Source: Candidatus Moraniibacteriota bacterium
GTDB lineage: Bacteria > Patescibacteriota > Minisyncoccia > Moranbacterales > UBA1568
Length of the DNA: 64,000 nt
Reading direction: 5' to 3'
NCBI GenBank assembly: GCA_028688415.1
Contig: JAQTYF010000001.1
Location: 400,627 to 464,626, forward strand
Numbering within the stretch: the stretch's first letter is position 1; each line of letters starts with the position of its first letter. This document shows, one piece after another, positions 4,172 through 42,804 of this stretch. A model generated the notes under the pieces. It was not told the origin of the DNA, did not search any database, and saw nothing but the letters and a program-made list of their open reading frames with translations. The translations under genes and the position numbers were made by a program.

Positions 4172-4251
4172 ACGTTTTTCTTTAAAAGATTGATTTCAAA
4201 AACACCATGTTATTCTATGCCTTCTTCCCATAACTGTCAAAAGAAAGGCTA

Positions 4252-5301
4252 TCAAAGGATAAGCATACTGTCTCCGAAAGAATAGAAAGTAAACTCATTT
4301 GCTATAGCTATCTGATACAATTCGACAATACTTTTTTTTGCTTTTTTATCTTGCAAAAATGCATCTACAAGAAGCATGAGTGATGTTTTTGGAAGATGGA
4401 AATTGGTCACGAGAATATCCACTACACGAAACTCGTACGGTGGATAAATAAATATTTCTGTTTTTCCATTCTGTGGCAAAATTCTCTGATCACACATCGA
4501 GGATTCAAGGGTACGAAGAGCTGTTGTTCCGACAGCAATAATATTCTTCTTCTCATCCATTGCAGCATCAATATGTTGCGCTGTTTCGAGAGAAATATTT
4601 ATAAATTCTGTGTGAAGTTTTTTGGTTATGAAGTTTTCATCTGCAAGCGGTGCGAATGTCCCAAGTCCCACATTCAGTGTCAAAAAATCAGTTTCAATAT
4701 TTTTCTCTTCCAGAGACTGAAATACTTCATCGGTAAAATGAAGCGATGCTGTCGGCGCGGCAACCGATGCTCCATCTCTAGCAAACACCGTTTGGTATCG
4801 TTTTCGCAATACATCTTCTGATATATTTGCTCCCTCAAGATAGTGTGGGAGTGGTGTTTCGCCGTATGTCTCGAGTAATATTTGAAGAGAAATATTTTCT
4901 TGACTCACAAGTCTCACAAAAAAGAGATTCTCTTTCTGATCAATCACTTCCAAAAAATCTCCATTCGTGAAAAAGAGTTTTTGACCCTTCTCCGTCTTAC
5001 GATCGACGAGTACCGGAATACATTTTTCATCTTCTATCTCATTGGCAAGGACGAATACTTCTATCTTTCCGCCAGTTTCTTTCTTGAGCCAGAGTCGTGC
5101 AGGCAATACCGTCGTATTATTGAGCATCACAAGAGACTGTCTTGGGAGATACTTCGCTATATGACGAAAGGTATCAAAAGTAATCGCATCCGTCTTCGTA
5201 TCATAAACAAACAATCGTGCACTATCACGTGGCTCAATACCTTGCTTCCTGATCAAATAATCAGGAAGCGTGTAATCATATTTCTTGAGATCAATCATTT
5301 T
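4252..5301 (-). CDS. queA: S-adenosylmethionine:tRNA ribosyltransferase-isomerase
   Basis: N-terminal 'DYTLPDYLIRKQGIEPRDSARLFV' matches the QueA signature 'dYeLPeeLIAq.P.e.RD.SRLlv'. The ORF in the track extends 20 codons upstream; start chosen at MKMIDL. Confidence 0.8.
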   Translation of the reverse strand, partial: KMIDLKKYDYTLPDYLIRKQGIEPRDSARLFVYDTKTDAITFDTFRHIAKYLPRQSLVMLNNTTVLPARLWLKKETGGKIEVFVLANEIEDEKCIPVLVDRKTEKGQKLFFTNGDFLEVIDQKENLFFVRLVSQENISLQILLETYGETPLPHYLEGANISEDVLRKRYQTVFARDGASVAAPTASLHFTDEVFQSLEEKNIETDFLTLNVGLGTFAPLADENFITKKLHTEFINISLETAQHIDAAMDEKKNIIAVGTTALRTLESSMCDQRILPQNGKTEIFIYPPYEFRVVDILVTNFHLPKTSLMLLVDAFLQDKKAKKSIVELYQIAIANEFTFYSFGDSMLIL

Positions 5302-5375
5302 CATAAAAAATTTTCGAAAGAAAAAAGGTTCAATGCAGTACACTAAACCTTTCTCGATCATTATTCACTTCTCGT

Positions 5376-5876
5376 TCAGAGAGGTGCATCACTCTTTTTT
5401 CGATTTTCGACTATTTGTAGAGATTGGCGTATCTGGGATTCTAGTCTTGCGACCGTGAATTCAAAATACTGATAAACTTCTCGTCGCGCTTCTTTGAAGC
5501 AATTTTCGAAACGTGCATCCACCAGTGGTGCATGGGGTCGCAAGCCCTTCTCGAGAAGATCGATATAGTATTCATCCAATTCATACAGTAAACTGTGACG
5601 AATAATATCAATACTCGCTATTTTCTGTTGTAATTGTTCGATATAAAGGGAAGCAACAGATTCATATTCCGCTGATTCGCGGAGCAACTTGATTGTTTTT
5701 GTATGGTATTCAGGAACGACAGTTTGCATGATACACTCCTCGAATGGTGAAAAAGTACTTTGTAAAAACTCTACCAGAAAAAAACTCTTCTGTCTATACA
5801 AACTCTTCTGTACAAATAACGATAAAATATTTTGTGGTATTATTTTTTCATTTTCATAACTCCATATATTTTTCAA
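5376..5876 (-). CDS. Hypothetical protein (166 aa)
   Basis: Intact ORF packed between queA and the acyltransferase gene on the same strand. No recognisable motif. Confidence 0.4.
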   Translation of the reverse strand: MKNIWSYENEKIIPQNILSLFVQKSLYRQKSFFLVEFLQSTFSPFEECIMQTVVPEYHTKTIKLLRESAEYESVASLYIEQLQQKIASIDIIRHSLLYELDEYYIDLLEKGLRPHAPLVDARFENCFKEARREVYQYFEFTVARLESQIRQSLQIVENRKKSDAPL

Positions 5877-5879
5877 TCC

Positions 5880-6509
5880 TTAGATTTTTTCGAAGAGCAT
5901 TCTGATTTCTCGACAACCTATCGGATGAGTATCAAAACTATATATCTGACTGAATTTCATCGTTGGCTTCTTTCGTGTGAGTATATCCCAATACGATCCG
6001 AAACCATCCATACGAACGAAAATAACGCCATTACTACTTTGCATAAAAAATTCTATACCACGCTGGAAATCTCCTATCGATTCTTTGTTAATTTTTCCTT
6101 CTGGAAAAAGGAAAATCGTTCTACCTCGTTTGAGAAAATCACGTGTTCTCATAAGACCGATGAGTTTTTCTTTTTTTGTCTCTCCGATATCATACCCACC
6201 AAGCACTTTCAAAAATGGCTTAAAATAGAACCGATTGTATTCTTTGTTATCAACAGGGAAATAGAGAGGCACGAGTTTCAAAAAAGATCGGAAAGGAATA
6301 TGGCTCAAAACAACGAAGGGATCTGCCATTGATTGGTGATTCGAAACAACGAGCACTCCTCTGTTGAGTATATTGAGATTTTCTGGCAATGTCCTATTCG
6401 TACCGTACAAAATCCGTACTGGGTATGACATCACAATATGTAAGAATATTTGGACGAGCGAACGACCATATTCGATGAGTGTATATTTCTGAACCTGTTT
6501 CATAGTCAT
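5880..6509 (-). CDS. PlsC/LPLAT-family acyltransferase (1-acylglycerol-3-phosphate O-acyltransferase-like)
   Basis: 'VVSNHQSMADPFVV' carries the HX4D catalytic box. 'FLFPEGKIN' carries the FPEG box of glycerolipid acyltransferases. Confidence 0.7.
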   Translation of the reverse strand: MTMKQVQKYTLIEYGRSLVQIFLHIVMSYPVRILYGTNRTLPENLNILNRGVLVVSNHQSMADPFVVLSHIPFRSFLKLVPLYFPVDNKEYNRFYFKPFLKVLGGYDIGETKKEKLIGLMRTRDFLKRGRTIFLFPEGKINKESIGDFQRGIEFFMQSSNGVIFVRMDGFGSYWDILTRKKPTMKFSQIYSFDTHPIGCREIRMLFEKI

Positions 6510-6524
6510 ACTCTACAAAAAGTA

Positions 6525-7439
6525 TTAAATACGTCCTTTTGATTTCAAAATTTGAAGAGCGACAAAAAGTTTGAGTTTCTGCCATGGATTTCTATTTCCG
6601 AAAGGAATATAGACTTTCTTCAGTGTTCGCAGATACGGATCAAAATGAAGAGAGTGCGGTACAGGGTATACTTTCTGATGAAAAAGTATCTTCAGAACCT
6701 CTGTTGAAACAAGATTGGCACAGAGGAGTGTCCCTGTCACGAGTGAAGGAGCCTTCTTTTCTTTCCAATCGACGCCTTCGGGTTTGAAATAACGTCGTTG
6801 AAGCAGTGTCGGCGTCAGACCAAGTCCAAAACGAAGCAATTGCATTTCTTTTGTTTGTTCATCACAAATATCGAAATACTCATCAAAACTCATTCCATGA
6901 GGATCAAAAACAAGCATAGAAGAGCCAAAACCAACTGGCCCTGCTGATACCGCAAAAACAGCCTGTTCCCGAGCAGATAAAAAAAGCATCCGACGAGTCT
7001 CAATAGCGAAAAAATCAAGGGCATCAACAACAACATCAACACCAGAGAGAAAAGAATCGATATTTTCAGTATGTATTCCTTGAGGGAAAGTCGTCACTTT
7101 TGCATACGGATTGATAGAATGAATCATTTTTTCCACCGCTTCTACTTTCGGTGTACCAACGGTATCCATTGTTGCCGATTGCTGTCTATTGATATTCACC
7201 ACTTCATACGTATCAAGATCAGCAATATGAAATTTTCCAAATCCGAGACGTGCGAAAGTACTGGCATAAAGAGCTCCTACACCCCCGAGTCCAGGTATCG
7301 CTATCGTCATATTTCTCAATTGCGCCTGTTGTTCCGGTGTCAACAATCCATTATTTCTCGAAAATGCCTCTGCATAAAACTCATTTTCGTTCAACATAAG
7401 ATTTTTACTTTTAATAAAAAATGGGTGTCCTACATACAA
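6525..7439 (-). CDS. ThiF/MoeB/E1-like adenylyltransferase
   Basis: 'IAIPGLGGVGALYA' Gly-rich nucleotide loop followed by 'DLDTYEVVNINRQ'. These match the ThiF family G-x-G-x-x-G and D.D.v..SNLnRQ boxes. No N-terminal peptide-clamp extension. Confidence 0.7.
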   Translation of the reverse strand: MYVGHPFFIKSKNLMLNENEFYAEAFSRNNGLLTPEQQAQLRNMTIAIPGLGGVGALYASTFARLGFGKFHIADLDTYEVVNINRQQSATMDTVGTPKVEAVEKMIHSINPYAKVTTFPQGIHTENIDSFLSGVDVVVDALDFFAIETRRMLFLSAREQAVFAVSAGPVGFGSSMLVFDPHGMSFDEYFDICDEQTKEMQLLRFGLGLTPTLLQRRYFKPEGVDWKEKKAPSLVTGTLLCANLVSTEVLKILFHQKVYPVPHSLHFDPYLRTLKKVYIPFGNRNPWQKLKLFVALQILKSKGRI

Positions 7440-7449
7440 ATAAATGCAC

Positions 7450-8115
7450 TCAATCTGAATGTCTGGATTGGCTCATACTCGACTGTAGAGGTACTTTCTG
7501 AATCAGTTCTCCTCTTGCATACGATTCGAGAATAGAAGATATTTTCTCTTTTTTGAGATCTCTCACCTGAACATTGGTAATAATCAATGCGACATAACGA
7601 AGGAACCAACGACCACTCCACTCTTGCAACAGCACGTCGTATGGCATTTCCATATTTCCAATAGGAAGACGATTATCGAAAGAATCTGATCCAATACGAG
7701 AATCATAAATATAGAACACTTTCTTTACATCGCTGTATCCTCCAACAGCTATCCAGTGAAGCGTGTTTGCTCGAATCAAAAGCACGGGAGGCCTCTTCTT
7801 GAGAGCTATCTCCGTGCGAATCCATTCGAGACGTTCTTCATTTGTTATAGCGTCGAGTCGGATCTCGAGAGTCGTCATATTATGAGCTTTGAATAGCTCT
7901 TTCATATCACGGGGAAAAACAGGACGAAACAAATCAAACCACACCGGACCTCGAAGCAATTTATTCGAAGAAAGAGAGCGGACACCTACAGCTTTGGCAA
8001 CCCATTCAGCTGTATACGATCCACAACGAATATGTGACCAATGGTCAATGAGAGGATTAGAGACAAGATCGACATATGCTTCTGCTGGTAACAGTTCTCT
8101 CGCTTCAGATTTCAT
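7450..8115 (-). CDS. Papain-fold Cys-His-Asp protein, C39 peptidase-like / BtrH-like
   Basis: Cys in 'HIRCGSYTAEW' near residue 31. His in 'LHWIAVGGY' near residue 120. Asp in 'YIYDS' about 18 residues later. The spacing resembles C39/BtrH_N domains. Assignment by pattern only. Confidence 0.4.
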   Translation of the reverse strand: MKSEARELLPAEAYVDLVSNPLIDHWSHIRCGSYTAEWVAKAVGVRSLSSNKLLRGPVWFDLFRPVFPRDMKELFKAHNMTTLEIRLDAITNEERLEWIRTEIALKKRPPVLLIRANTLHWIAVGGYSDVKKVFYIYDSRIGSDSFDNRLPIGNMEMPYDVLLQEWSGRWFLRYVALIITNVQVRDLKKEKISSILESYARGELIQKVPLQSSMSQSRHSD

Positions 8116-8136
8116 AAAAATATATTCACCGTTTTA

Positions 8137-8388
8137 TCAGTGTTTTATTTGCGATTTTTTCAAATACGTCACTATGTCACCGAGCGTTTCAATATTGATG
8201 AGGTCGATATAATTCGCTTCAAGATGGAAAGCTTCTTCAAATGCTGTGATGAGACTGAACATCGCAATCGAATCTTCTGCCAAGTCATCGATTCGCAAAG
8301 AAAAATCTAGATCTTTCAATGGTTTATTAAAAACACGCGAAACAATTGCGAGTACCCTTGATTCGGTTGTTTCGTCATTATTCTCCAT
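8137..8388 (-). CDS. Acyl carrier protein-like (83 aa)
   Basis: 'IDDLAEDSIAMFSLITAFEEAF' matches the ACP helix-II phosphopantetheine site (D-S-L/I followed by an acidic helix). Size fits a four-helix ACP. Overlaps the PPTase gene by 11 nt. Confidence 0.65.
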   Translation of the reverse strand: MENNDETTESRVLAIVSRVFNKPLKDLDFSLRIDDLAEDSIAMFSLITAFEEAFHLEANYIDLINIETLGDIVTYLKKSQIKH

Positions 8389-9037
8389 ACGGTTCTACAT
8401 AAAGTATAGCACCAAATGGACATCCTGGAAAACTCAGTTTCTCTGGCCGTATCCTTCTTTCCTGACCATCTTGTATCAAAGAAAGAAGTTCTCCTCGATT
8501 ATTTATGGTTGTTTCTATGGCATGGGGATGGAGAGCGAGTCCTGCTCCAATTGCCTTCAGGAAAGCTTCTTTGTAACACCATATCTGAAGAAATGGAATA
8601 TGATAACGGATACAAGAATCATATTCCTTAGGAGTCAAGAATGATCGCGAAAATGCCTCTGTACACTCTCGATCGTGTTCTATATCCACTCCGACATACC
8701 CTGTTTCTTCTATAAGAGACAATCCAGCGATTGCTTTTCCTTTCGTATGACTGAGAGACAGAGAATATTCTGAGTGAAAAACAATATCATCATGATGAAG
8801 AATACGGAAATCTGGCCTCGTATGAGAATCACTGATAATTTCTATGTCGATTGGCGCAACCTCTCTATGCCACTGATTCCGAATCATCTGCGAGATGATG
8901 TGTTTGGCAGCTATCCGTCCAGCAAGCCAGTCAGGCTGTTTTTTTTCTGACAATTGCTCGTACTGACTCTGTTCTTTCGGAGACAGACTTTGTTTCATCA
9001 ATACCGAAGATATTTCTTCTTCCCAAAAATAGAACAT
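8378..9037 (-). CDS. 4'-phosphopantetheinyl transferase, Sfp-type
   Basis: PPTase motifs 'GVDIEHDRE' (G-x-D-x-E) and 'WCYKEAFLKAIG' (W/F-x-x-KEA-x-x-K). 219 aa is Sfp-length rather than AcpS-length. Confidence 0.75.
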   Translation of the reverse strand: MFYFWEEEISSVLMKQSLSPKEQSQYEQLSEKKQPDWLAGRIAAKHIISQMIRNQWHREVAPIDIEIISDSHTRPDFRILHHDDIVFHSEYSLSLSHTKGKAIAGLSLIEETGYVGVDIEHDRECTEAFSRSFLTPKEYDSCIRYHIPFLQIWCYKEAFLKAIGAGLALHPHAIETTINNRGELLSLIQDGQERRIRPEKLSFPGCPFGAILYVEPYGE

Positions 9038-9167
9038 ATTCTATATAAAAAATAAATAAAAATAAGCGGTATCACTACTCTTTCTTTCTTCTCCATCTTC
9101 AGTATATGATAAGAACGGAAATCAATGCAAAAGGACAGGAAATATGCTAATATAATGGGTAGATATT

Positions 9168-10355
9168 ATGCGTTATCTTCTTCTCGTCATCATTTTTGTC
9201 CTTCGTGATTTCAGCAAAGCTCGCGCTATTTTTACTATGGTTGTTATCAGTCTCGCTATTGCTTCTACATCGGTACTCGCAACCAATAGCATCCTCGCTG
9301 GGTTTCAAGAGATGCTCAGTAAAGGAGTAAAGGGCTGGATAGGAGATATATTCATTATACCAACGGAAGAGAAGCCATCTATTGATCATGCTGAAGACAT
9401 CATATCAGATATCAAGACACTTCAGTATGTAGAAGCAGTGAGTGTGCGTGCGTCAGCTGATGGAACATTTAAATACAAAGACAAAATCAGTGCACCTTTT
9501 TCACTTATTGGTGTTGATACGGGAGCAGAGGCCTACACTACCGGACTCCCCTCTACCGTCATCCAAGGCCAATTCCTCGATATTACAATGGATTCAGAAA
9601 GTATCATACTGGGTCTCAATTTTGCTGATAGCTTCATAGGAGGTCCGTATGATGGATCAAGTCTTTCTGTAGGAGAAAAGCTCCAGTTCATTCGTAACGA
9701 CGGCAGTGTCAAAGAATATCGTATCAAAGGTATCATTGATGGAAAAAACTTCCTTGCTAATTTCTCTGCAATGCTCCAAAAAGATGAGGTGGAGAGAATA
9801 TCTGTCGAACGTCGCAACAGTTCTATTGTTGTCAAAGTTTCAGAGGAAGAAAAGATAGAATCAGTCAAAAAAACGATTGCCGAAAGACATCCTGATGTTA
9901 TCGTCCATAATTGGATCGAGGAATCAGGCTATGTCGAAGGCATTATGCAAACCGTATATTACATCACGTTTCTCATCTCATCTCTTCTGATTTTCTCAGT
10001 TTTCTTTATCATCGCCATCGTCATATTTATCAATATTTCTCAGAAAAAACGTCAAATCGGAATCATGAAATCAATGGGTGCTACCACTCGTTTTATTGTC
10101 TCCATTTACGTCTTGGAATCGGTCCTATACTTCGTCTTCTCCTATCTCCTTGGTATTCTCCTCTTTCTCGTTATTCATTCTTATTCTGTTTCACACTCAG
10201 TGCCACTTTTGATTGGTGACTTCCATACCGTACTTGATTGGCAGAAAAATATTCTTTATTTCTTCATTCTCCTCCTTTCGGCTTTCCTCGGCGGACTTAT
10301 CCCTTCCTTTTTTGCTTCGAAACAAAAAATTATTGATACACTCCGTAGCACCTAA
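9168..10355 (+). CDS. ABC transporter permease, FtsX/MacB-like
   Basis: N-terminal TM helix, ~230-aa extracytoplasmic domain, then three C-terminal TM helices with 'MKSMGATTRFIV'. This is the typical MacB/LolE permease topology. Confidence 0.75.
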   Translation: MRYLLLVIIFVLRDFSKARAIFTMVVISLAIASTSVLATNSILAGFQEMLSKGVKGWIGDIFIIPTEEKPSIDHAEDIISDIKTLQYVEAVSVRASADGTFKYKDKISAPFSLIGVDTGAEAYTTGLPSTVIQGQFLDITMDSESIILGLNFADSFIGGPYDGSSLSVGEKLQFIRNDGSVKEYRIKGIIDGKNFLANFSAMLQKDEVERISVERRNSSIVVKVSEEEKIESVKKTIAERHPDVIVHNWIEESGYVEGIMQTVYYITFLISSLLIFSVFFIIAIVIFINISQKKRQIGIMKSMGATTRFIVSIYVLESVLYFVFSYLLGILLFLVIHSYSVSHSVPLLIGDFHTVLDWQKNILYFFILLLSAFLGGLIPSFFASKQKIIDTLRST

Positions 10356-10359
10356 ATCT

Positions 10360-11061
10360 ATGCAAAAACCCATTATTCAATTCAAAGATGTCACCAAGAT
10401 CTATTCTGGAGCAGGCGTATCTTCGACAATGGCCTTGAATGGTATCAACCTCGAGATTTATGAGAATGAATTCGTCGCAATCACAGGAAGTTCTGGATCA
10501 GGAAAAAGTACCATCCTCAATCTCATTGGCCTCCTCGATGATCCAACCTCTGGCGAGATACTTTTCAATGGAAAAAATGTTCATCAATTAAACGAGAAGG
10601 AGAAAAATACTTTCCGTCTCCAGTCTATTGGATTTATTTTCCAATTTTTCAATCTCATCGACAACTACACAGCTCTCGAAAATATCGTCTTTCAACTCGA
10701 ACTCCAAGGAAAAAGCTACGAAAAAGCCAAAGCGGATGGTCTCGAAATACTCAAATATCTCCACCTCGAAAATCGTGCGCATCTTTACCCGAAAAATCTC
10801 TCTGGTGGCGAACAGCAACGAGTCGCTATTGGACGAGCTCTCGCCAAAGAATCCCCTTTCATTATTGCTGATGAACCAACCGCTCATCTCGACTCAAAGA
10901 ATTCACAGGATGTTATGGATATACTGCACCATATACAGACCACATTCCATCGGACACTCATCCTCGTGACTCACGAACCTTTCCAAGCAGAACAAGCTGA
11001 TCGACAAATCATTATTCGTGATGGAAAAGTAGCAGAAATAATTACAAAAAAAATCGCCTAA
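10360..11061 (+). CDS. ABC transporter ATP-binding protein (MacB/LolD-type)
   Basis: Walker A 'GSSGSGKST', Q-loop, signature 'LSGGEQQRVAIGRAL', Walker B 'IIADEPT'. Start reassigned to ATG 10360, directly after the permease stop 10353..10355. The track ORF from 10213 is an upstream extension of the same frame. Confidence 0.85.
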   Translation: MQKPIIQFKDVTKIYSGAGVSSTMALNGINLEIYENEFVAITGSSGSGKSTILNLIGLLDDPTSGEILFNGKNVHQLNEKEKNTFRLQSIGFIFQFFNLIDNYTALENIVFQLELQGKSYEKAKADGLEILKYLHLENRAHLYPKNLSGGEQQRVAIGRALAKESPFIIADEPTAHLDSKNSQDVMDILHHIQTTFHRTLILVTHEPFQAEQADRQIIIRDGKVAEIITKKIA

Positions 11062-11104
11062 TTCCTCTTGATGTTGTATACTGTAGGTATACTATTTCCT
11101 TACA

Positions 11105-12676
11105 ATGAAACTTTCTCTCATTATTTTTAGTATCCTCTTTACTTGCCTTGTTCTCATTTTAGGAACATTTTTCTTGGTTCCAGATTTTTCATTCTTTGGA
11201 TTACGAGGACAACCCACTGAAGACAAAAATATTGTCGCTATAGAACGTGGTGAGCTCACAAAAATAATTACTATCAACAATGCCAAACTCGTTGCTTTAG
11301 ATGATTTCGAACTGTCATTTCCTTTTCCTGGTCGAGTAGAATCCATTTCTGTTCAAGAAGGACTCGTCGTATCTGCTCAAAGCACTCTCCTCGAACTCGA
11401 CACGACAGAGCTCGAACTCGAACGACAAAAAGCTCTCGCTCTCGTACACCAAAGCACCACCAATCTTGCTCAAGCCAGGGCTGGAGTACGAAGTGGTGAG
11501 ATTGCTGTTTTTTCCGACAAAGTGAAAGGTGCCAAAACCTCTCTTTCTGGGAGCAAAAAAAATCTCGTCGATGCACTACAAAATGCTTACGTCACCACTG
11601 ATGACGCACTGCACAATCTCTCGGATCGGACACTGGTCGATCCTACGGGTGATGCTCCTCAAATCAATTTTATCCTCAGTGATACCGATCTCGAAAATGA
11701 AATAGAGACTGATCGCAAGTCTCTCGAAGGAGAACTCTCGGATTTCAAAAACGATGTAGATGGTCTGGATACATCAGACAATCTCACCAAAGCGCATACC
11801 TCTGCAGAAAAAAAAGTTGAAAATATCAGAAAATATCTCGATAATCTCGCATCTGGACTCAATAAAACAACTGCTTCAGGATCACTTACCGAAGAACTGC
11901 TCACCGACTGGCGATCAGCACTGACGCTCGCTCGTACCAATGTCAGTACTGCGAAAAGCAATCTCTCTGCCATGTTCAATGCCTATCAGAATGCAGGACA
12001 AAGTCTCACGCTGGTCAAAAGTGAACTTGATGTACAAGGATCAGGCAACGTCGTTTATGACATCGATATGAGTCGATTCCAGCTTGAAGAAGCAGAACGA
12101 ATGCTCGATATTGCGAACGAAAAACTCCTCCAAGCAACTCTCGTTTCTCCACAGGATAACCTCATTGTGAAGAAAATCTATCCCAATACGGGTGAACGAC
12201 TGAGTGCTCACCAACCAGCCGTCTATCTCGCTACTGGTGCGCTTCAGATACAGATTGATATTCCAGAAGAAGATATTGCTGGAGTCACTACTGGCAATAT
12301 CGTACACCTAACACTTGGCGCTTTTCCAAACCATCCTCCTATCGAAGGGGTGATCGATACTATCGAGCCCAATGAACTCTCAAAAAATGAAAGTATCTAT
12401 TATCGAGCTTTCGCTACACTCAAAAAACAAGAGCCTGAGTGGCGTACAGGTATGACAGGAGAAGTAGAGATTCGTGTTGGTGCTACCACCGCTCTCCAGG
12501 TCCCGAAAAGTGCTGTTTACAAAAAAAATGGAAAACAATACATCCAGAAAGTGTCTACCACAGGCACAGAAGAGCAGGAGGTGACTACGGGATTGTCAGG
12601 AGAAAATACCTTGGAAATCACTGGTGCCTCGATCAAACAAGGAGATACTGTGCTTCGTTATCCGAAACTTCCTTAA
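11105..12676 (+). CDS. HlyD-family periplasmic adaptor (membrane fusion protein)
   Basis: N-terminal signal anchor, lipoyl-like 'GRVESISVQEGLVV', a very long coiled-coil middle, and a C-terminal beta-barrel region. Confidence 0.7.
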   Translation: MKLSLIIFSILFTCLVLILGTFFLVPDFSFFGLRGQPTEDKNIVAIERGELTKIITINNAKLVALDDFELSFPFPGRVESISVQEGLVVSAQSTLLELDTTELELERQKALALVHQSTTNLAQARAGVRSGEIAVFSDKVKGAKTSLSGSKKNLVDALQNAYVTTDDALHNLSDRTLVDPTGDAPQINFILSDTDLENEIETDRKSLEGELSDFKNDVDGLDTSDNLTKAHTSAEKKVENIRKYLDNLASGLNKTTASGSLTEELLTDWRSALTLARTNVSTAKSNLSAMFNAYQNAGQSLTLVKSELDVQGSGNVVYDIDMSRFQLEEAERMLDIANEKLLQATLVSPQDNLIVKKIYPNTGERLSAHQPAVYLATGALQIQIDIPEEDIAGVTTGNIVHLTLGAFPNHPPIEGVIDTIEPNELSKNESIYYRAFATLKKQEPEWRTGMTGEVEIRVGATTALQVPKSAVYKKNGKQYIQKVSTTGTEEQEVTTGLSGENTLEITGASIKQGDTVLRYPKLP

Positions 12677-12684
12677 CCATCTCT

Positions 12685-13365
12685 ATGAATATCGTCTACT
12701 CCCGTGCACTCACAACGACTGACCGACAGATTGCATCACAAATCATCAAGCGACAATACGCTGAAAGCGGATATACTGTTTCCGAAGCAGACATCGATGA
12801 CAAGATGGTACATTTTCTTGATCAAAAAACTGCACAAGTATATCTCGCTCAATACGAAAATACTCCTCTTGCCACTATTTCTCTTATCGGAGATTCATCC
12901 GCTGGTCTCCCTCTCGATGAGCTCTACAAAACAGAAATAGACTCTCTTCGTGCGCAAGGTTTCCGACTCGCAGAGGTCTCACAACTCGCTGTCGATACGA
13001 AGCACGCTCTCGAATTTCTTCCAGAAAAAATCCTCAAAAGAAATCTTCTTCTCTTCCCCTTCTTCCAAATCATTCTTCAATCTGCAATACAAAAAAAAAT
13101 CGATGCTCTCTGCATCGCTATCAATCCCAAGCATGATTTCTTTTATACGACATTGGGCTTCGAAACAATCGGGGAGCTCAAATACTATACGTCATTCAAC
13201 AATGCTCCAGCATTTGCCAAAATATTGAGGCTCGATACTCTGACAAAGAAAAAAGAAGAAACAAATTTCCTCTCTCGAATGATGTCTGATATTTCCCCGA
13301 TCGATCCGCTCGTATTCACCGGTGAACAAAAACTGATTTTTCCTCTTGAAATATCTCAGAAATGA
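12685..13365 (+). CDS. GNAT-superfamily N-acyltransferase, LuxI/FeeM/OlsB-like (putative N-acyl amino acid synthase)
   Basis: 'FRLAEVSQLAVD' resembles the R..E.SR.AV box of acyl-ACP-dependent N-acyltransferases. Start set at ATG 12685 (MNIVYS), after the adaptor stop. The track ORF from 12439 is an out-of-context extension overlapping the adaptor gene. Confidence 0.4.
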   Translation: MNIVYSRALTTTDRQIASQIIKRQYAESGYTVSEADIDDKMVHFLDQKTAQVYLAQYENTPLATISLIGDSSAGLPLDELYKTEIDSLRAQGFRLAEVSQLAVDTKHALEFLPEKILKRNLLLFPFFQIILQSAIQKKIDALCIAINPKHDFFYTTLGFETIGELKYYTSFNNAPAFAKILRLDTLTKKKEETNFLSRMMSDISPIDPLVFTGEQKLIFPLEISQK

Positions 13366-33269: not shown

Positions 33270-33357
33270 AACATATTAGCAAATTTTGACCATTTTGTCA
33301 AGGGTAGATTTTTCAGCTATACTAGAAAGCATTCGGCTTTATATAAAACAAAAAACT

Positions 33358-35469
33358 ATGCAATTTGAAACACTTTTTTCTCCAAAATCTATCGCAGTCA
33401 TCGGAGCATCCACACAGGTTGGCACGGTCGGCTACACCCTCACCGAAAACCTTCTCCAAAACGGATACACTGGGAAGGTCTATCCGGTCAATCCAAAAAC
33501 GGATACACTCTTCAATCTCCCTTGTTATGCAAACATTTCTCTTATTCCCTACGACATCGAACTCGCTATCATTATTGTTCCAGCACATATCGTCCCTGTC
33601 GTTCTTCGCGAAGTCGCTGCCAAAGGCATAGCCTCCGCGATCATCATCTCTGCCGGGTTCAAAGAAACAGGTGAAGCCGGAGAGAAGCTCGAAATGGAAA
33701 TAACAACTATTGCACGAGAAAATAATATCGCTCTTCTCGGACCGAATTGTCTCGGATTTCTCCGCCCTTCTCTCGGGCTCAATGCTTCTTTTGCAAAAAT
33801 TCTTCCGAGTGATGGACACATCGCTTTCTTCTCTCAGAGCGGTGCTCTTTGTACAGCCCTCCTCGATCTCACCACGACGTCACTTGGCTTCTCACATTTT
33901 GTGAGCATCGGTAACAAAGCTATCATCGATGAGAACACCCTTCTTCAATTTTTCTCTGCCGATAAAAATGTTTCTGTCATCAGTTGTTATACCGAAGGCG
34001 TCACTGATGCCAACAAAATGATAGAAACGGGTCGTGCTATACTCGCGAGATCCGATGCCAAACCAATCATCGCTCTTAAATCAGGAACGACCACTGCCGG
34101 CACGCAGGCATCAAGCTCTCATACGGGTGCTCTCGCCGGGAGCGATGCAGCTTACATCGCACTCTTCAAACAATCTCGCATCATCCGTGCGGAGAGTCTC
34201 GAAAATCTGATCGATCTCCTCACAGTTTTTTCTCACAACACCCTTCCAGAAGACAACCGCGTCGCTATTATTACGAATGCTGGAGGACTCGGTGTTCTCG
34301 CTACGGATGCTGCCATCGAGAGCGGTCTCCGTATTGCGCCCCTCAGTAATGTGACCAAGTCACGGCTACGTGATGTCCTCCCTCCGTCTGCCAGCGTGAA
34401 CAATCCAGTTGATGTACTCGGTGATGCACTCGCAGAACGTTATGAACACGCACTCGAAGTAGTAGTCAGAGATGAATCCGTCGATATGATACTTGTCATC
34501 GTCACCCCACAGACCATGACGGAAGATGTGAAGACTGCCGAAGCACTCATTGCTATAAAAAAGCACTACAACAAACCAATTGTTGCTGTGTTTGCTGGTC
34601 AAGAATCATTCCGTGCTGGGAGCGACCTCCTGAAATCTCATGGTGTGGCCGTCCTCACCTATCCAGAATCCGGTATGCGAGCACTCGGATCACTCGCTCA
34701 GGTTACCAAGTGGCGTAAACAGCTCATTGTTCCAGAGATAACTCTCAGTAATATCGACAAGGAAAAGGCTCGAAAAATACTCGATGATGTACAAAAAAAT
34801 GGTCGCGCGACGCCGACTGAAAAAGAAACGAGCGAAATCCTCAGTGCTTATGGATTCCCCTTCTTTGCTACCTATGAAGTACAAACGAGAGAAGAGGCTA
34901 TTTCTGCAGGACAGAAAATCGGCAAAAAAGTCGCTCTCAAAATCGTCTCGCCAGACATCATTCACAAATCCGATGCGGGCGGAGTAATACTTGGTATCGA
35001 TTCAAGCGACGTCGGAGAGGCCTACGATCGGCTGATGGTCACGGTCAAGAAAAATGTTCCTGACGCACATATCACTGGTGCACTCGTCGTCGAAATGGCA
35101 GAATCGGGTGGTAAAGAACTCCTCCTCGGACTCAAGAAAGAACCCGGACTCGGTACCCTCCTTGTTTTCGGTCTCGGTGGTATCTATGTCGAAACACTCA
35201 AAGATGTCACGATGCGTTTTGTTCCAACCAATGAAACTGATATCGATGAAATGATCCGAGAAATAAAAAGTTTTGCCATTCTCTCCGGAGTACGAGGTGA
35301 ATCGGGTATCGATATGTCCTATCTGAGAGAAGTCTTGATGCGTCTGACACAGTTTGCAATAGATTTCCCGGAAGTCGCTGAGCTCGATATCAACCCTCTC
35401 CTTTCCTTTCCTCAAAAAGAAAATTTCCGTGTTCTCGATGCGCGTATCCGTCTCGAAAAAACGCTCTGA
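33358..35469 (+). CDS. ADP-forming acyl-CoA synthetase, fused alpha/beta (CoA-binding + ATP-grasp)
   Basis: 'SIAVIGASTQVGTVGY' CoA-binding Rossmann start, ligase-CoA domain, and a C-terminal ATP-grasp ('DIIHKSDAGGV'). Start taken at MQFETL 33358. Confidence 0.7.
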   Translation: MQFETLFSPKSIAVIGASTQVGTVGYTLTENLLQNGYTGKVYPVNPKTDTLFNLPCYANISLIPYDIELAIIIVPAHIVPVVLREVAAKGIASAIIISAGFKETGEAGEKLEMEITTIARENNIALLGPNCLGFLRPSLGLNASFAKILPSDGHIAFFSQSGALCTALLDLTTTSLGFSHFVSIGNKAIIDENTLLQFFSADKNVSVISCYTEGVTDANKMIETGRAILARSDAKPIIALKSGTTTAGTQASSSHTGALAGSDAAYIALFKQSRIIRAESLENLIDLLTVFSHNTLPEDNRVAIITNAGGLGVLATDAAIESGLRIAPLSNVTKSRLRDVLPPSASVNNPVDVLGDALAERYEHALEVVVRDESVDMILVIVTPQTMTEDVKTAEALIAIKKHYNKPIVAVFAGQESFRAGSDLLKSHGVAVLTYPESGMRALGSLAQVTKWRKQLIVPEITLSNIDKEKARKILDDVQKNGRATPTEKETSEILSAYGFPFFATYEVQTREEAISAGQKIGKKVALKIVSPDIIHKSDAGGVILGIDSSDVGEAYDRLMVTVKKNVPDAHITGALVVEMAESGGKELLLGLKKEPGLGTLLVFGLGGIYVETLKDVTMRFVPTNETDIDEMIREIKSFAILSGVRGESGIDMSYLREVLMRLTQFAIDFPEVAELDINPLLSFPQKENFRVLDARIRLEKTL

Positions 35470-35637: not shown

Positions 35638-36036
35638 TCACGCCTCCCGTTTCTTGGAGAAGGTACTGATGAAATTGAGCACGTCTGGAATCGTTTTCAC
35701 GACTCCTCGCGATTCTCTCACCCTCGGATTCTTCTCCGAGGGTGAGAGCCAGCACCAGATGTCGAAACCTAGGGGAAGCACTTTCACGGTACACTTCCCC
35801 GGGTTGTACGGCGACCCTTCGAAAGAAATCACCGGACGCCAGTCGTTTGCCATCACACTCTGCTCGAGCGTGCGGTACCGATCGGCATACTGCGCCGAGG
35901 TGAGAAGCTCAACCGCCACGAGCTTCTCTGCCTTTATCGAGACAGGGAAGAACGTGACGGCCACTCCATCTTCGATCCCCTGCGCCCACACCGGTCCGAT
36001 AAAAAAAGAAAGAAAAAAAAGAAAATATTTGATCAT
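35638..36036 (-). CDS. Small secreted protein, hypothetical
   Basis: Start at MIKYFLFFLSFFIGPVWAQG (signal peptide). SD 'ggagg' upstream. The track ORF extends further to 36210. Confidence 0.4.
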   Translation of the reverse strand: MIKYFLFFLSFFIGPVWAQGIEDGVAVTFFPVSIKAEKLVAVELLTSAQYADRYRTLEQSVMANDWRPVISFEGSPYNPGKCTVKVLPLGFDIWCWLSPSEKNPRVRESRGVVKTIPDVLNFISTFSKKREA

Positions 36037-39245: not shown

Positions 39246-39291
39246 AGAAAAAAGTGTGGCGGATTCTTCTGTTGTTCCAGAAAAATCCGCC
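39246..39291 (-). terminator. Rho-independent terminator downstream of the lipoprotein gene
   Basis: Hairpin ggcggatt...aatccgcc, followed on the minus strand by a U-run (A-run 39248..39253 on plus). Confidence 0.55.
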
Positions 39292-39299
39292 GACTTCGT

Positions 39300-40192
39300 T
39301 TAGTACGGGACAGTCTGTTTTTTTCCACACAGCATCCCGTTTTTGATCGCCCCTTCGTACTGCATTTTCACGATACGGGCAATCATACCCTGGTACCCCC
39401 GCTTGAGTTCAGACTGTTCGTCCCAACCTTTGTCAGAAGCACCGGCAGACATGAGCACGTCAGAGGCTGCGCCCATCGCTGATGAGAACCAGTCGAGTGT
39501 TATCCCGAAGTGACCGTTGCCGATCAATTTCTCAGAAAAACTGAGCTCGGGGTTTTCACGAGCCACACCACGGACGAATTGCTCCGCAAGCGGTGTACGG
39601 ATGTCATACGGCAGTGCTTTCGTACGCACCGTATTCCATCCCGCGAATACTGACGAGAGTCCGCTCTTACCCTCTGTCGCGATTTTCTTCAGTCGCGAGA
39701 TGTCGGTACCACCAGCACGCACCATATCTCTCCGATAGGCGCTATCGGAAGTGAGTTTTTCTGGTCTCTCGAGAGTGATCTCATCACCGTAGAGGCTCCA
39801 GAGTCTCGTCATCCGCGTGTCGGCAAATGCTCCCACCACTGGTTCGTCAATATTTCCTTCGACGATGAATACCAAACGGAGAGCACACTCGGCATAGCCG
39901 GTGTAGAGCGCCTGAGCCGGATACTCTTTTCCAGTCGTCACGCCAAACGCAATTGCGTTGTAGCGCATCCGCAGTGGGTGCATTTCTGCCATCAGTGCAT
40001 CAGGGAAATTCCCGAGCACAGCAGAGAACCGTCCAGAACGGATAGCTTCTGTTTCCCTAATCCCAATAAAACTAATCGGGTCGAGGGAGACTTCCGTTTT
40101 CGCTCCGAATTCATTCGCGACTGCCATGGTGTTACCACCGAGCGTCGCACAGCCTGTCAGCAGAAGTGCCAACAAGAAAAGTATGATTCGCA
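39300..40192 (-). CDS. Lipoprotein, hypothetical (GC-rich island)
   Basis: Signal peptide with lipobox 'LLTGC' after start MMRIILFLL. High G+C. No recognisable domain. Confidence 0.5.
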
Positions 40193-40428
40193 TCATGTGA
40201 TAACTCCTGTAAAATTGAAAGGTACTCTCTGTTTTCGGGATCATTTCTGATACCGCGGGTAGAAGAATGAATCATCACTGTTCCGCCCGCCGTACCACAA
40301 AATCCTGTTTTTTCTCTCCTTTGATAACTGTATATTATACTCTATTTCAACAGAAAAGTCAAGAGCCCACAGATTCCAGTTGGAAAATGTGGGCTCTTTT
40401 TTGGCGATGTTTCTCGCCCATTGTGGGG

Positions 40429-40797
40429 TTACTGCGATTCGAGAGCGCAGCCGTTTTTATTGGTGCATTCGGTCACCACACCTGACAATGTGTAGGGATT
40501 GCCAGCCGGGGTAATCAGTAACCAACGACCACTGGCGTCCTTGACCTGGAACCGGCCACCGTTCTCGGAGACCTTGGACAAGACGCCGACGCCGTCCTTC
40601 ATGGCGATCGGCCGTATTCCTTGGTTCTGGAAATGGACCAAGGTTTTTGCTGGAATACCCGCGACCGTGATGGTCACGTCGTCGCCCGCTTTCGTGGCCG
40701 TGATCGTACCCCCCGAAACGGCGAAGGTTTTGGCAGAAGTCAGGCCAGCGAATGCAACCAAGGCGGTTGCGAGGGAGAGGGAAAGAACTTTGTGCAT
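40429..40797 (-). CDS. Small secreted protein, hypothetical (GC-rich island)
   Basis: Signal peptide 'MHKVLSLSLATALVAFAGLTSA'. SD 'aggagg'. 122 aa. Confidence 0.45.
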   Translation of the reverse strand: MHKVLSLSLATALVAFAGLTSAKTFAVSGGTITATKAGDDVTITVAGIPAKTLVHFQNQGIRPIAMKDGVGVLSKVSENGGRFQVKDASGRWLLITPAGNPYTLSGVVTECTNKNGCALESQ

Positions 40798-40877
40798 GGT
40801 AACCTCCTAGGTTGCACGTTTTGATTCATTGAGTGTGGACACTCAACGGCCCGCAAAACAATTTTTGAGGACTTTCC

Positions 40878-40906
40878 ATATTACACCAAAACAAACGTTT
40901 TGTCAA
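40878..40906 (-). promoter_or_regulatory. Consensus-like sigma70 promoter for the 40797 gene
   Basis: On minus: TTGACA, 17-nt spacer, TAATAT. Followed by a 7-bp perfect inverted repeat ttgagtg-tgga-cactcaa (about 40827..40844) ahead of the RBS. Confidence 0.45.
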
Positions 40907-41127
40907 TAGCTAAAAAATGCCTTAGTATCAGCCTTCTTTTCTCTACAACAAGTAAATGAAAATAAATAAAGCAAAAGGGACGGTCACACATTGTGTAAAC
41001 GTCCCTTGTTGTCATTTTCGAAGCACACTTTTTCTTCACGCCAGGCCTGATATCTCGTATGTTTTCACATTGACGGATACACTTTTTATACACCTTGGAT
41101 CAGAATCAAAAGTTTTGCCAAACCACC

Positions 41128-42636
41128 TTATTCGGGTGGACTAGAGGAAGCTTCCATTATGGCAGAGATGAAGTCAAGTTGACCATCCCTGCTCTTGGCA
41201 TCAGCTTCGCGGACCTTGCCACCGAGCTCAACACGTACGAACGCGCCGACAGTGGTCAGGTCTCCGGAAGTGAGTGGCTGATTCAGATGGCTGATGCCCA
41301 AAGGTACACTCAGCTGTGGACCAAACATCAGCCACTTGTCGTACCGTACTTCGTACGTCGCCTTGAGCCAATGCTGTTCGTCCCAGTTGGTGAACGCCCA
41401 ACCGCCGATCAACCGTTGACGCCACTTGTCATCATCTGAGAGCTTCGTTTCATAGAAGCCAGACAGACTGACGGAGCCACGGTCTTGGACGGGTTGTCCT
41501 GCCCAGGTCGAGCTGACGCTCTGACCGAAGGACTTCCAATATTCACCTACGATACCAGCGAGGTCGCCCTCTTTGTTCAACCGTTCGGTGTAGCCCGCGT
41601 ACGCACCCAACTTGTACCCATTCTGAGTAAAGCTGTAACCTGACTCAGGATTTTCACCCCAAGACTTGTCACGGAGCAAACGGAGTTTCAGATCGAATGT
41701 CGTGAGACGGTTCCGATCGTTCACCCAATTTTTCTGGGCACCAAATTGAACGCCGTAACCGAGTTCCTGCCCGTGGTAAGCAGAGGTGAGTGAATCGCCA
41801 CTGCCATACATAGCGTAGAGCCCGGGACCGGCTTGCCATTCACCATTCTGCCAGATGTAGCAAATGGTTTCGCCGTAGAGCCACTGGCCTTGATAGACCT
41901 GATTGGCATGGACGCCGGCACCGGCTTGAGCCTCACAACGTGGCTTGCCTGCTACTTCTGCAGGGGTCACATGAAACGGAGCAATAATCTCCGGCTCTGC
42001 AACAGGCACTTCTTTGGGAGGTACCATGATCACTGGTGGAGTCGACACTACGGGAGTATCGAGCACCCAGTTGTTGCAGTTCCTCACCCAGTGAAGTTTC
42101 CTTCCTGTAGTGAGGACATACGTCCGAGCCAGTACGACCACCGAGCCAGGAGCCCATGCAGTGATGACATTGTGCTTGAACGACACGGAGCCATTCTTGC
42201 AAAATGCCACTGCCTCATAACGTTCCCCTGGTTGGATGAACGTGTTGCGATGTTCACGACGAGTGATCATCGCATGGAGGTCCTGTTTCTCACTCTCTGT
42301 GAGACCCAGACTCATCCACGCCTCTTCGTTTAGAACGTTTGCGGATTTGCCACCACAATTTGTGAGTGGAGCACCGCCGACATGTGTCCAGCGAAACTCT
42401 GCTGGCGACTTGTTCACAGTTTTGACACTGCGCACAGGTACGCTGAGCTCGAGGCGTTGTCCGACAAAAATCTTGGAGCAGTCTCGCAGGCTATTCGCCA
42501 GACAGACCGCTTTCCAATTTTTTCCAGCCACCTTGCTCAATGTATCACCGGCTTTCACCGTATACACTTCCGCATTCGCCGTTCCGAAGAAGGCAAACAG
42601 TACCACCAAGAAGGTGGCGATCATTTTAATGATCAT
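41128..42636 (-). CDS. Secreted LysM-domain protein with a large Gly/aromatic-rich C-terminal domain (GC-rich island)
   Basis: Start MIIKMIATFLVVLFAFFGTANA (signal peptide), then 'YTVKAGDTLSKVAGK...' LysM. ~400-aa C-terminal region with alternating aromatic/Gly residues. Confidence 0.55.
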   Translation of the reverse strand: MIIKMIATFLVVLFAFFGTANAEVYTVKAGDTLSKVAGKNWKAVCLANSLRDCSKIFVGQRLELSVPVRSVKTVNKSPAEFRWTHVGGAPLTNCGGKSANVLNEEAWMSLGLTESEKQDLHAMITRREHRNTFIQPGERYEAVAFCKNGSVSFKHNVITAWAPGSVVVLARTYVLTTGRKLHWVRNCNNWVLDTPVVSTPPVIMVPPKEVPVAEPEIIAPFHVTPAEVAGKPRCEAQAGAGVHANQVYQGQWLYGETICYIWQNGEWQAGPGLYAMYGSGDSLTSAYHGQELGYGVQFGAQKNWVNDRNRLTTFDLKLRLLRDKSWGENPESGYSFTQNGYKLGAYAGYTERLNKEGDLAGIVGEYWKSFGQSVSSTWAGQPVQDRGSVSLSGFYETKLSDDDKWRQRLIGGWAFTNWDEQHWLKATYEVRYDKWLMFGPQLSVPLGISHLNQPLTSGDLTTVGAFVRVELGGKVREADAKSRDGQLDFISAIMEASSSPPE

Positions 42637-42804
42637 GATGCACTCCTTTGTTGGTTGATTGAAAAATAGGTCACCGCAAGGCGACCCGACCTGAGTTGCT
42701 TCACGGCACACCTCCTGTTGTTAAAAAACCACCTTGATAATCCGAAATAGACTATCTCAACTGCTTTTGATTTCTTATTTCAAAAACAGCATGACATATT
42801 CCAT

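Follow-up and report, generated by a model that had tools for sequence, protein, structure and literature searches.

A compositionally atypical patch in the surface-glycan locus of Moranbacteria is probably a native envelope module encoding a predicted LysM–β-barrel protein

Introduction

When three adjacent genes for surface proteins are much richer in guanine plus cytosine (GC) than the genes around them, have they been acquired from elsewhere, or do they belong to the genome in which they lie? The question is raised by a 64,000-nucleotide stretch of the Candidatus Moraniibacteriota contig JAQTYF010000001.1 (positions 400,627 to 464,626 of the forward strand), referred to here as the window. 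At 39246-42760 of the window, on the minus strand, lie the genes for a conserved lipoprotein, a small secreted protein, and a protein with a LysM domain and a predicted β-barrel, together called the module. As the initial annotation had recognized, the patch sits in a surface-glycan locus of a reduced genome: Pfam finds a Wzz-like protein (a weak GNVR match) at one edge of the module and, at the other, a GT4 glycosyltransferase and a Wzy_C protein. The genome is that of a Candidatus Moranbacteria member of the Candidate Phyla Radiation (CPR/Patescibacteria), and exact copies of the proteins are encoded on a Moranbacteria contig of 939 kb. The three products had also been taken for secreted or surface proteins, and the lipobox LLTGC of the lipoprotein and the signal peptides of the small protein and the LysM protein are indeed seen in the sequence. 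The central proposal, read from the GC content, was that the patch had been acquired horizontally as surface or host-interaction cargo. That proposal is unsupported, since orthologues occupy the same site in 18 related genomes and in all 23 of a set of independently anchored loci. We consider it rather likely that the region is a native, vertically inherited envelope module specific to Moranbacteria and not a recently acquired island.

The Module Occupies One Site in Moranbacteria

In the 18 related genomes, the module has the Wzz-like gene on one side and the Wzy gene on the other. Synteny was read in the loci of six homologues of 34-75% identity, and all six have the same neighbourhood, in the order PBP2-GreA-LysRS-SerRS-BNR lipoprotein-frr-RseP-Wzz-like, then the module, then Wzy-GT4-ADP-forming acetyl-CoA synthetase. 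Gene order inside the module varies: the lipoprotein gene may stand before or after the LysM gene, and the small-protein gene is sometimes replaced or duplicated.

Presence and absence were also assessed without selecting on the module. A metagenome scan was anchored on the Wzz-like gene, and the loci were then searched by hidden Markov model (HMM). In the resulting set of 23 loci with at least 3.5 kb of downstream sequence, a LysM-family gene follows the Wzz-like gene in 23/23, and the barrel HMM matches 20. Neither patchy presence nor an empty site was found among the 18 genome loci or the 23 anchored loci. Orthologues at the same place in relatives are what the initial annotation had named as evidence against transfer, and they are what the comparison of related genomes brought out.

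The taxonomic distribution is no kinder to a foreign source. For all three families, the homologues that carry names are Moranbacteria, and no relative is named to another lineage save for locus titles reading ‘uncultured Bdellovibrionales’ (L021, L025, and L026). L021 is the same contig as L003, and L026, of 3 kb, holds a partial barrel match. The titles of L021 and L025 are probably mislabels because both loci carry the Moranbacteria-type synteny frr-RseP-Wzz-like-LysM/barrel. A scan taking one genome per species gave 16 loci, Moranbacteria by title or by synteny, with the 3-kb contig L026 unchecked.

Barrel identity between the window and L001, L002, and L003 is 0.75, 0.54, and 0.43, and housekeeping identity is 0.80, 0.80, and 0.67. 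The barrel and the lipoprotein diverge as fast as, or faster than, their housekeeping neighbours. In no pairwise comparison of genomes does similarity in the module surpass that in frr, RseP, and LysRS, and recent exchange between Moranbacteria lineages was rejected on this ground. The module flanks contain no att-like direct repeats and no integrase, and the nearest tRNA gene is 4 kb away. PHROGs matched only the LysM part of the module, and in a library of predicted viral structures the barrel matched only generic autotransporter or outer-membrane protein (OMP)-type barrels, with no specific viral homologue. A phage or mobile origin was rejected on the PHROGs result, the generic nature of the viral folds, and the lack of att-like repeats.

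The Atypical Composition Belongs to the Coding Sequences

The high GC content noticed at first sight is confirmed by measurement, and the composition of the window is not uniform. The patch has a GC content of 0.511, versus 0.419 for the rest of the window (z = 5.5 relative to 1069 other 3.5-kb windows, the highest of which reaches 0.468). Its tetranucleotide profile lies at an L1 distance of 0.398 from that of the window, roughly double the distance of any other chunk (0.174 ± 0.019, maximum 0.201). GC and third-position GC (GC3) are 0.52 and 0.57 for the lipoprotein gene, 0.57 and 0.68 for the small-protein gene, and 0.53 and 0.58 for the LysM-protein gene, whereas the 48 other open reading frames (ORFs) of the window have a mean GC of 0.422 (standard deviation 0.026) and a mean GC3 of 0.389 (standard deviation 0.057). 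The corresponding z scores of the three genes are 3.7-5.6 for GC and 3.1-5.2 for GC3.

The four spacers within or bordering the module have a GC content of 0.38-0.42 (pooled, 0.400), with other intergenic DNA of the window pooling to 0.378, and the adjoining Wzy, GT4, and Wzz-like genes are without GC enrichment. Since the spacers have ordinary GC, the anomaly belongs to the coding sequences and not to the region. Its confinement to ORFs speaks against a foreign block and also against mutational processes that act region-wide, biased gene conversion among them.

The same compositional behaviour is displayed by a fourth small secreted ORF, which lies at 35638-36036 on the minus strand between the GT4 and acetyl-CoA synthetase genes. 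It encodes 132 residues (MIKYFLFFLSFFIGPVWAQ...), has a GC content of 0.53 and a GC3 of 0.66, and is preceded by a promoter-like site at 36179-36151 (11/12 matches). Homologues are present in L001, L012, and L018, and there is no Pfam or PHROG match. The ADP-forming acetyl-CoA synthetase gene (33286-35469, plus strand), the sole large plus-strand gene of this stretch, has a moderate GC enrichment (GC 0.47, GC3 0.44), and its place beside the glycan locus is kept in relatives.

Across the 18 genomes, flank GC extends from 0.38 to 0.57 (GC3 0.29-0.72) and barrel-gene GC from 0.47 to 0.61, and a regression of barrel-gene GC3 on flank GC3 has a slope of 0.35. The barrel gene is above its flanks in 15 of the 18 and below them in the three GC-richest; the more distant low-GC lineages have a smaller offset, +0.03 to +0.05. 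The amino-acid content of the module combined with background codon usage predicts a GC of 0.471, and the observed value is 0.540 over a background of 0.427. About 40% of the excess is thus due to amino-acid composition and about 60% to synonymous choice. Among module residues, Trp is enriched 2.8-fold, Ala 1.45-fold, and Gly 1.42-fold, and Ile, Phe, Glu, and Lys are depleted.

The synonymous choices recur among relatives. In 15-17 of the 18 genomes, the module genes prefer TTC, TAC, AAC, GAC, ATC, AAG, and CTG (TTC, TAC, and AAG each in 16/18, CTG in 17/18). They avoid GGA, ACA, GTA, CTT, GCT, and TCT irrespective of genomic GC, GGA being enriched in 1/18, and the enrichment of four-fold codons ending in G or C reverses sign with genomic GC. 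The initial annotation had proposed codon usage as a check on origin: the deviation is there, and much of it is conserved across the 18 genomes.

The ribosomal-protein genes of the window, for L7/L12, L10, and S16, share the preference for TTC, ATC, AAG, and AAC. By an index of two-fold C-ending codons and AAG, the top seven of 45 genes are the three module genes, ORF 35638-36036, and the three ribosomal-protein genes. This shared choice, kept across relatives, would fit high expression, and on this indirect evidence the module is probably highly expressed. Running the other way, the codon adaptation index (CAI) of the module genes relative to L7/L12, L10, and S16 is 0.48-0.56, which is below the median, and the ribosomal-protein genes prefer GCT, GGT, ACT, and GAT, whereas the module prefers GCG, GGC, CGG, and GAC. 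The CAI is low because the ribosomal-protein genes favour four-fold codons ending in T or A, and the same difference leaves the four-fold G/C enrichment of the module unexplained by expression bias. Translational selection as the sole cause was rejected on the below-median CAI and is kept as a partial explanation. It has been partly shown, then, that amino-acid composition and expression-like codon bias account for much of the GC signal, though not all of it; the four-fold G/C excess in low-GC genomes stands outside.

Native genes can deviate sharply in tetranucleotide and codon usage through codon bias (PMC9723686). The module resembles such genes, for example the ribosomal-protein genes that drop from metagenome bins (PMC9723686), in its C-ending two-fold and AAG preferences; it differs from them in its low CAI and in a shift that extends to four-fold codons ending in G or C. 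A patch that is 5 standard deviations off in GC, and atypical in tetranucleotides as well, can be fully native. Since the deviation here is confined to ORFs and recurs in orthologues over 38-57% genome GC, composition alone would have miscalled an island.

The LysM Protein Is Predicted to End in an Outer-Membrane-Type Barrel

The LysM protein is 100% identical to the database entry P0001, ‘LysM domain-containing protein [Candidatus Moranbacteria bacterium]’. Its start is most likely the ATG at 42636 and not the GTG at 42711, as the 502-residue form exactly matches the entry. The LysM domain recognized in the initial annotation is a true one (Table 1), and the large Gly/aromatic-rich domain is equally real, with Gly, Trp, Tyr, and Phe making up 28% of the C-terminal domain versus 15.5% in other proteins. 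The LysM domain is present in 33/36 family members, LysM chains in the PDB match the profile of the protein down to E 1e-13, and the domain spans residues 21-64 of an AlphaFold2 (AF2) model built on the 36-sequence family alignment. In some homologues, an N-terminal membrane anchor replaces the signal peptide. The α/β middle domain that follows is predicted with a confidence (predicted local distance difference test, pLDDT) of mostly 91-95 per 10-residue block, one block being at 80. VGGAPL..CG and NCGNW are among its conserved motifs, and searches of Pfam and of PDB sequences gave no match to it. The Pro-rich linker differs in length between homologues.

The barrel itself is modelled as twelve long antiparallel strands, with 10-residue block means of 84-98, mostly above 90. 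On most strands, the sequence has an apolar/aromatic face alternating with a polar/Gly face, and strands β1, β5, and β7-β12 have clean apolar faces free of charges. The alternation is consistent with a membrane-type barrel but is no proof of one.

In a Foldseek search of the PDB, with template modelling (TM) scores normalised to the target, the top matches are the 12-stranded autotransporter translocators Hbp (3aeh; E 1.6e-8, TM 0.50), EspP, BrkA, NalP (1uyo; TM 0.54), and AIDA-I. Lower matches are FadL, OmpG, the intimin barrel (4e1s; E 1.4e-4, TM 0.42), and OpcA. The probability is 1.00 for the Hbp, EspP, BrkA, NalP, and intimin barrels, and PgaA and AlgE are weak, poorly superposed matches with a TM of 0.2-0.3. 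At the level of sequence, no Pfam barrel family matches any of the 36 members better than E 0.08; the only ones to appear are OMP_b-brl_3 at E 0.081 (two members) and DUF3575 at E 0.14 (one member). The barrel profile matched no PDB chain by sequence. A barrel-only profile run against 1.84 billion representatives gave 234 clusters (50% identity), nearly all of them proteins of 500-650 residues with the barrel at the C-terminus. Few of the clusters carry names, and every named one is Moranbacteria. Judged by these searches, the barrel family is new at the sequence level and, so far as sampled, restricted to Moranbacteria, and no description of it was found in the literature on Moranbacteria and LysM or on CPR β-barrels and porins.

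The last barrel strand, DLTT-x-GAFVRVELG, is the most conserved stretch of the family. It resembles the ‘β-signal’ of OMPs, polar-x-G-x-x-hydrophobic-x-hydrophobic, a likeness treated here as a lead only. In the tail that follows, a helix at residues 472-496 is predicted at low confidence, and the conserved Q-x-EF-I-P-A motif is at times duplicated in homologues.

The Lipoprotein and the Small Secreted Protein

The lipoprotein start, the ATG at 40196, gives a 298-residue product in exact agreement with a database entry. The lipobox consensus is [LVI][ASTVI][GAS]C, and the signal peptide, MMRIILFLLALLLTGC, ends in a sequence that fits it. Cys16 is nearly invariant (at least 90% of the sequences in a 35-sequence alignment). 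The 36 homologues are of 52-100% identity; 44 invariant residues, two of them Cys, and a mean column identity of 62% put conservation well above that of the barrel. AF2 predicts a β-rich N-terminal part followed by helices, with block means of 70-93 over residues 21-210; the C-terminal third, although conserved, is poorly predicted. Pfam and PHROGs gave no match to the lipoprotein, no PDB chain matched by sequence, and Foldseek found nothing in the PDB (best E 0.44). The pairing of barrel and lipoprotein persists down to 33% identity and under reversed gene order (hhalign E 1.8e-40). In the divergent subgroup of L007 and L009, the lipoprotein was considered as a homologue of the window lipoprotein and rejected on comparison, the two being unrelated.

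The small protein has a signal peptide followed by about 100 residues with a conserved C-terminal loop, E-C-x5-C-A-L-E. There are 14 homologues of 49-100% identity, the named ones all Moranbacteria; searches of Pfam, PHROGs, and the PDB gave no match, and no relatives are detectable outside its own family. The slot that it occupies is variable, holding one or two different small secreted proteins of 129-213 residues (L002 12121-13222; L005 12191-12661; L007 12027-12668), and within each locus GC3 peaks in the genes of this slot, at up to 0.90. The L007 locus has additional genes inserted, among them one for a PaaX-like regulator, and lacks Wzy.

Comparison with Known Systems

The closest arrangement is that of the inverse autotransporters (type Ve, intimin/invasin), which have a signal peptide, a LysM region, a 12-stranded barrel, and a C-terminal segment in the same order and whose intimin barrel is among the structural matches given above. 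The differences are considerable. The inverse autotransporters carry a large C-terminal passenger (Ig-like/lectin), whereas only 32 residues follow the barrel here and about 30-60 in homologues, and the Moranbacteria protein has an additional α/β domain and Pro-rich linker. None of the 36 members has an IAT_beta sequence match at E ≤ 1. The Moranbacteria lineage, moreover, is reported to be without an outer membrane and hence without the β-barrel assembly machinery (BAM) (10.1101/2021.05.31.446380, 10.1101/2020.05.14.094862).

The classical autotransporters (type Va: Hbp, EspP, BrkA, NalP, AIDA-I) have 12-stranded barrels of equal size (E 1.6e-8 to 4e-5, TM 0.43-0.54). The likeness is at the level of the predicted fold only (3aeh, 2qom, 3qq2, and 1uyo, probability 1.00, TM 0.50-0.54); identity is 10-13%, and no Pfam Autotransporter match is found. 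In the Moranbacteria protein, the N-terminus is a wall anchor of LysM, α/β domain, and linker, and not a secreted passenger, and the helix is predicted after the barrel, whereas the helix of the classical autotransporters fills the pore and precedes the barrel.

In OmpM and SlpA (SLH plus barrel) and in OmpA (barrel plus OmpA_C), as in the protein described here, a peptidoglycan-binding module is joined to a barrel by a spacer in one polypeptide. The wall module of the Moranbacteria protein is LysM, with no SLH or OmpA_C, and its barrel is 12-stranded. The wall-module-plus-barrel arrangement has been discussed as an ancestral tether of Terrabacteria, and the CPR is held to have lost such systems with the outer membrane (10.1101/2021.05.31.446380). 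By sequence and domain content, the LysM-barrel protein stands outside the inverse autotransporter, OmpM, SlpA, and OmpA families. No Pfam match to Wza, Wzi, or GfcD, which act in Wzy-dependent export and anchoring, was found, and the link to such systems comes from gene neighbourhood alone.

Proposed Role and Alternative Explanations

The function that we infer for the LysM-barrel protein from its predicted architecture is as follows. LysM would anchor the N-terminal half to the cell’s own peptidoglycan, the Pro-rich linker would cross the wall, and the barrel would form a pore or an anchor in the outermost layer, a topology like that of an inverse autotransporter or of an OmpM/OmpA-type tether. 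The lipoprotein, anchored in the membrane, is probably its working partner. Because the strand number is even, both barrel ends would be on the wall side, and the conserved tail could fold back into the lumen, there to act as a plug or mini-passenger. A role for the module in the surrounding Wzy-dependent surface glycan is possible, as is one in contact with a host cell; gene neighbourhood weakly suggests a glycan-handling role.

Several observations weigh against this picture. The neighbourhood also holds unrelated housekeeping genes (frr, RseP), so that position is weak evidence for a glycan role. HMM search picks up the lipoprotein family in no more than 11 of the 23 anchored loci, and L009 carries a non-homologous lipoprotein in place of that of the window. 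The barrel has been predicted from an alignment of 36 sequences, and its lipid-facing belt is judged by strand periodicity alone. Above all, cryogenic transmission electron microscopy of CPR cells shows a surface layer (S-layer) and no outer membrane (10.1101/2020.05.14.094862), the CPR has been treated as monoderm, with porins and tethers lost (10.1101/2021.05.31.446380), and a study of CPR pili likewise assumes that no outer membrane is present (10.64898/2026.03.03.709456). The barrel could then be a proteinaceous component of the surface layer, lie in an unrecognised lipid layer, or be inserted into a host membrane.

What layer the barrel would occupy is therefore the point on which readings of the protein part. 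The boldest is that Moranbacteria place a peptidoglycan-tethered, 12-stranded OMP-type barrel in a lipid layer outside the wall, either an outer lipid/S-layer composite of their own or the outer membrane of the host; we regard this as decidedly unlikely. If it were true with the host’s outer membrane, the protein would act as mechanical tether and feeding pore at once, and its assembly would not involve BAM. The barrel may instead be barrel-shaped without being embedded in a membrane, a LysM-anchored building block of the S-layer or else a lectin or scaffold that is soluble and associated with the wall; we rate this as somewhat unlikely. Strong expression signals on the genes, and the many strand faces with Gly, Tyr, or Trp in place of long aliphatic side chains, would suit such a protein, and the S-layer proteins of Deinococcus and Thermus are themselves wall-anchored barrels. 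The periodic S-layer seen on CPR cells that show no outer membrane would suit it as well (10.1101/2020.05.14.094862). Against a non-membrane barrel are the best structural matches, all of them integral outer-membrane barrels, the charge-free apolar faces of the eight strands named above, and the lack of any S-layer family match in Pfam.

The origin of the module is likewise open to more than one account. Recent acquisition would make the patch a foreign, GC-richer block with surface cargo that entered the glycan locus either in this genome or in its immediate ancestors. The strongly atypical GC, GC3, and tetranucleotide usage, and the lineage-restricted ORFans that encode the secreted proteins, are what such an event might leave, but the constant site in genomes and anchored loci, a divergence that tracks or exceeds that of housekeeping genes, the lack of a homologue named to another phylum (the probable ‘Bdellovibrionales’ mislabels aside), the absence of att repeats, integrase, or an adjacent tRNA gene, and the compositionally native spacers make it extremely improbable. 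An older transfer is a different matter: an autotransporter- or intimin-like LysM-barrel gene may have passed from a diderm donor into the ancestor of Moranbacteria and descended vertically since, its composition held by selection. The 12-stranded OMP-type fold is otherwise known, by Foldseek, from diderm type V secretion proteins, the order of LysM then barrel is otherwise a diderm type V order, that of the intimin/invasin proteins, and the CPR is regarded as lacking outer membranes (10.1101/2021.05.31.446380, 10.1101/2020.05.14.094862). We nevertheless hold it to be improbable, given no similarity of the 36 members to Pfam OMP, autotransporter, or IAT families nor to PDB chains, and given that every named hit among the 234 is Moranbacteria. 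Amelioration, moreover, should erase donor GC long before divergence to 30-40% identity, so that ancient acquisition fails to explain the GC signal. A third account keeps the module native and ascribes its GC excess to GC-biased gene conversion, or to a surface-antigen hot spot at which homologous exchange is frequent, and not to selection for expression. The enrichment of GCG, GGC, and CGG, unlike in ribosomal-protein genes, and the buffering of module GC at about 0.5-0.6 across genomes of very different GC favour it, and surface loci are classic hot spots of recombination. This cause is weakened by the spacers of normal GC within the module, and the unenriched Wzy, GT4, and Wzz-like neighbours, the lack of a genome pair with excess module similarity, and a two-fold C-ending preference that persists even where module GC3 is no higher than that of the flanks further reduce it to something quite improbable. 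We therefore return to a native module, inherited vertically.

On that reading, the proteins of a conserved family of 234 clusters in one CPR order carry both a LysM anchor for the wall and, by prediction, an outer-membrane-type barrel. CPR envelopes have hardly been characterised and are regarded as lacking an outer membrane. The family offers a concrete starting point, amenable to cloning, for work on the composition of the CPR outer layer, and it bears on how CPR cells make contact with hosts and on whether barrels can exist and assemble without BAM. Such questions feed the debate on diderms and monoderms, and the significance would be higher if the barrel proved to reside in a lipid layer of supposed monoderms.

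Expression Signals and Feature Coordinates

The coordinates of the features are collected in Table 1. From their sequence signals, the three module genes are separate transcription units, each closed by a terminator of its own. Near-consensus, sigma-70-like promoter sites and strong ribosome-binding sites are present in addition for the lipoprotein and small-protein genes, the Shine-Dalgarno sequence of the small-protein gene being AGGAGG. The consensus promoter and clean terminator that the initial annotation had assigned to the small-protein gene are both there. For the LysM gene, a promoter scan gave no good match. The 168-nt leader between the Wzz-like stop and the LysM start contains a terminator-like site, the fold of the whole leader not being significant (z -0.6), and the LysM gene might be transcribed by readthrough from the Wzz-like gene, subject to attenuation.

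Table 1. Features of the module and its signals, in window coordinates (CDS, coding sequence; aa, amino acids).
Feature	Position	Strand	Basis
CDS, LysM / β-barrel protein, 502 aa	41128..42636	-	ORF; AF2 mean pLDDT 83
Signal peptide, aa 1-22 (...FFGTANA/EVY)	42571..42636	-	read from sequence
LysM peptidoglycan-binding domain, aa 25-62	42451..42564	-	Pfam PF01476, 25.9 bits vs cut-off 20.9
Conserved α/β middle domain with conserved Cys, aa 80-195	42052..42399	-	AF2 and alignment
Pro-rich disordered linker, aa 196-229, VSTPPVIMVPPKEVPVAEPEIIAPF	41950..42051	-	pLDDT <50 for aa 197-220
Predicted 12-stranded OMP-type β-barrel, aa 233-470	41227..41940	-	AF2, Foldseek
C-terminal tail, aa 471-502, predicted helix and conserved Q-x-EF-I-P-A motif	41131..41226	-	AF2, alignment
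CDS, conserved lipoprotein, 298 aa, lipobox LLTGC, Cys16	39300..40196	-	ORF
CDS, small secreted protein, 122 aa, signal peptide, β-rich	40429..40797	-	ORF
Promoter-like site, small-protein gene, TTGACA-17-TAATAT	40878..40906	-	10/12 matches
Promoter-like site, lipoprotein gene, TTGACT-17-TATAAT	40334..40362	-	11/12 matches
Terminator hairpin and T-rich run after LysM/barrel gene	40975..41007	-	RNA fold z -3.4
Terminator hairpin after small-protein gene, overlapping lipoprotein promoter	40361..40398	-	inverted repeat I1; RNA fold z -5.35
Terminator after lipoprotein gene, 14-bp stem and U6	39258..39291	-	fold z -6.2
GC-rich hairpin and U-run in the 168-nt leader between Wzz-like stop and LysM start	42668..42687	-	terminator-like site

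Further Observations

In L002, the SerRS gene of the conserved neighbourhood (4098-5414) is 46% identical to that of the window, versus 68-78% in other relatives, and its neighbouring genes are 70-82% identical; the identities suggest a replaced (xenologous) seryl-tRNA synthetase.

Elsewhere in the window, at 5880-13365, a cluster encodes an acyltransferase, a ThiF-like enzyme, a 4′-phosphopantetheinyl transferase, and a MacB/ABC/HlyD-type pump, together with a FeeM-like N-acyl amino acid synthase (12439-13365). The cluster may form a small production and export system for lipo-amino acids, an unusual feature, if so, for a reduced CPR genome.

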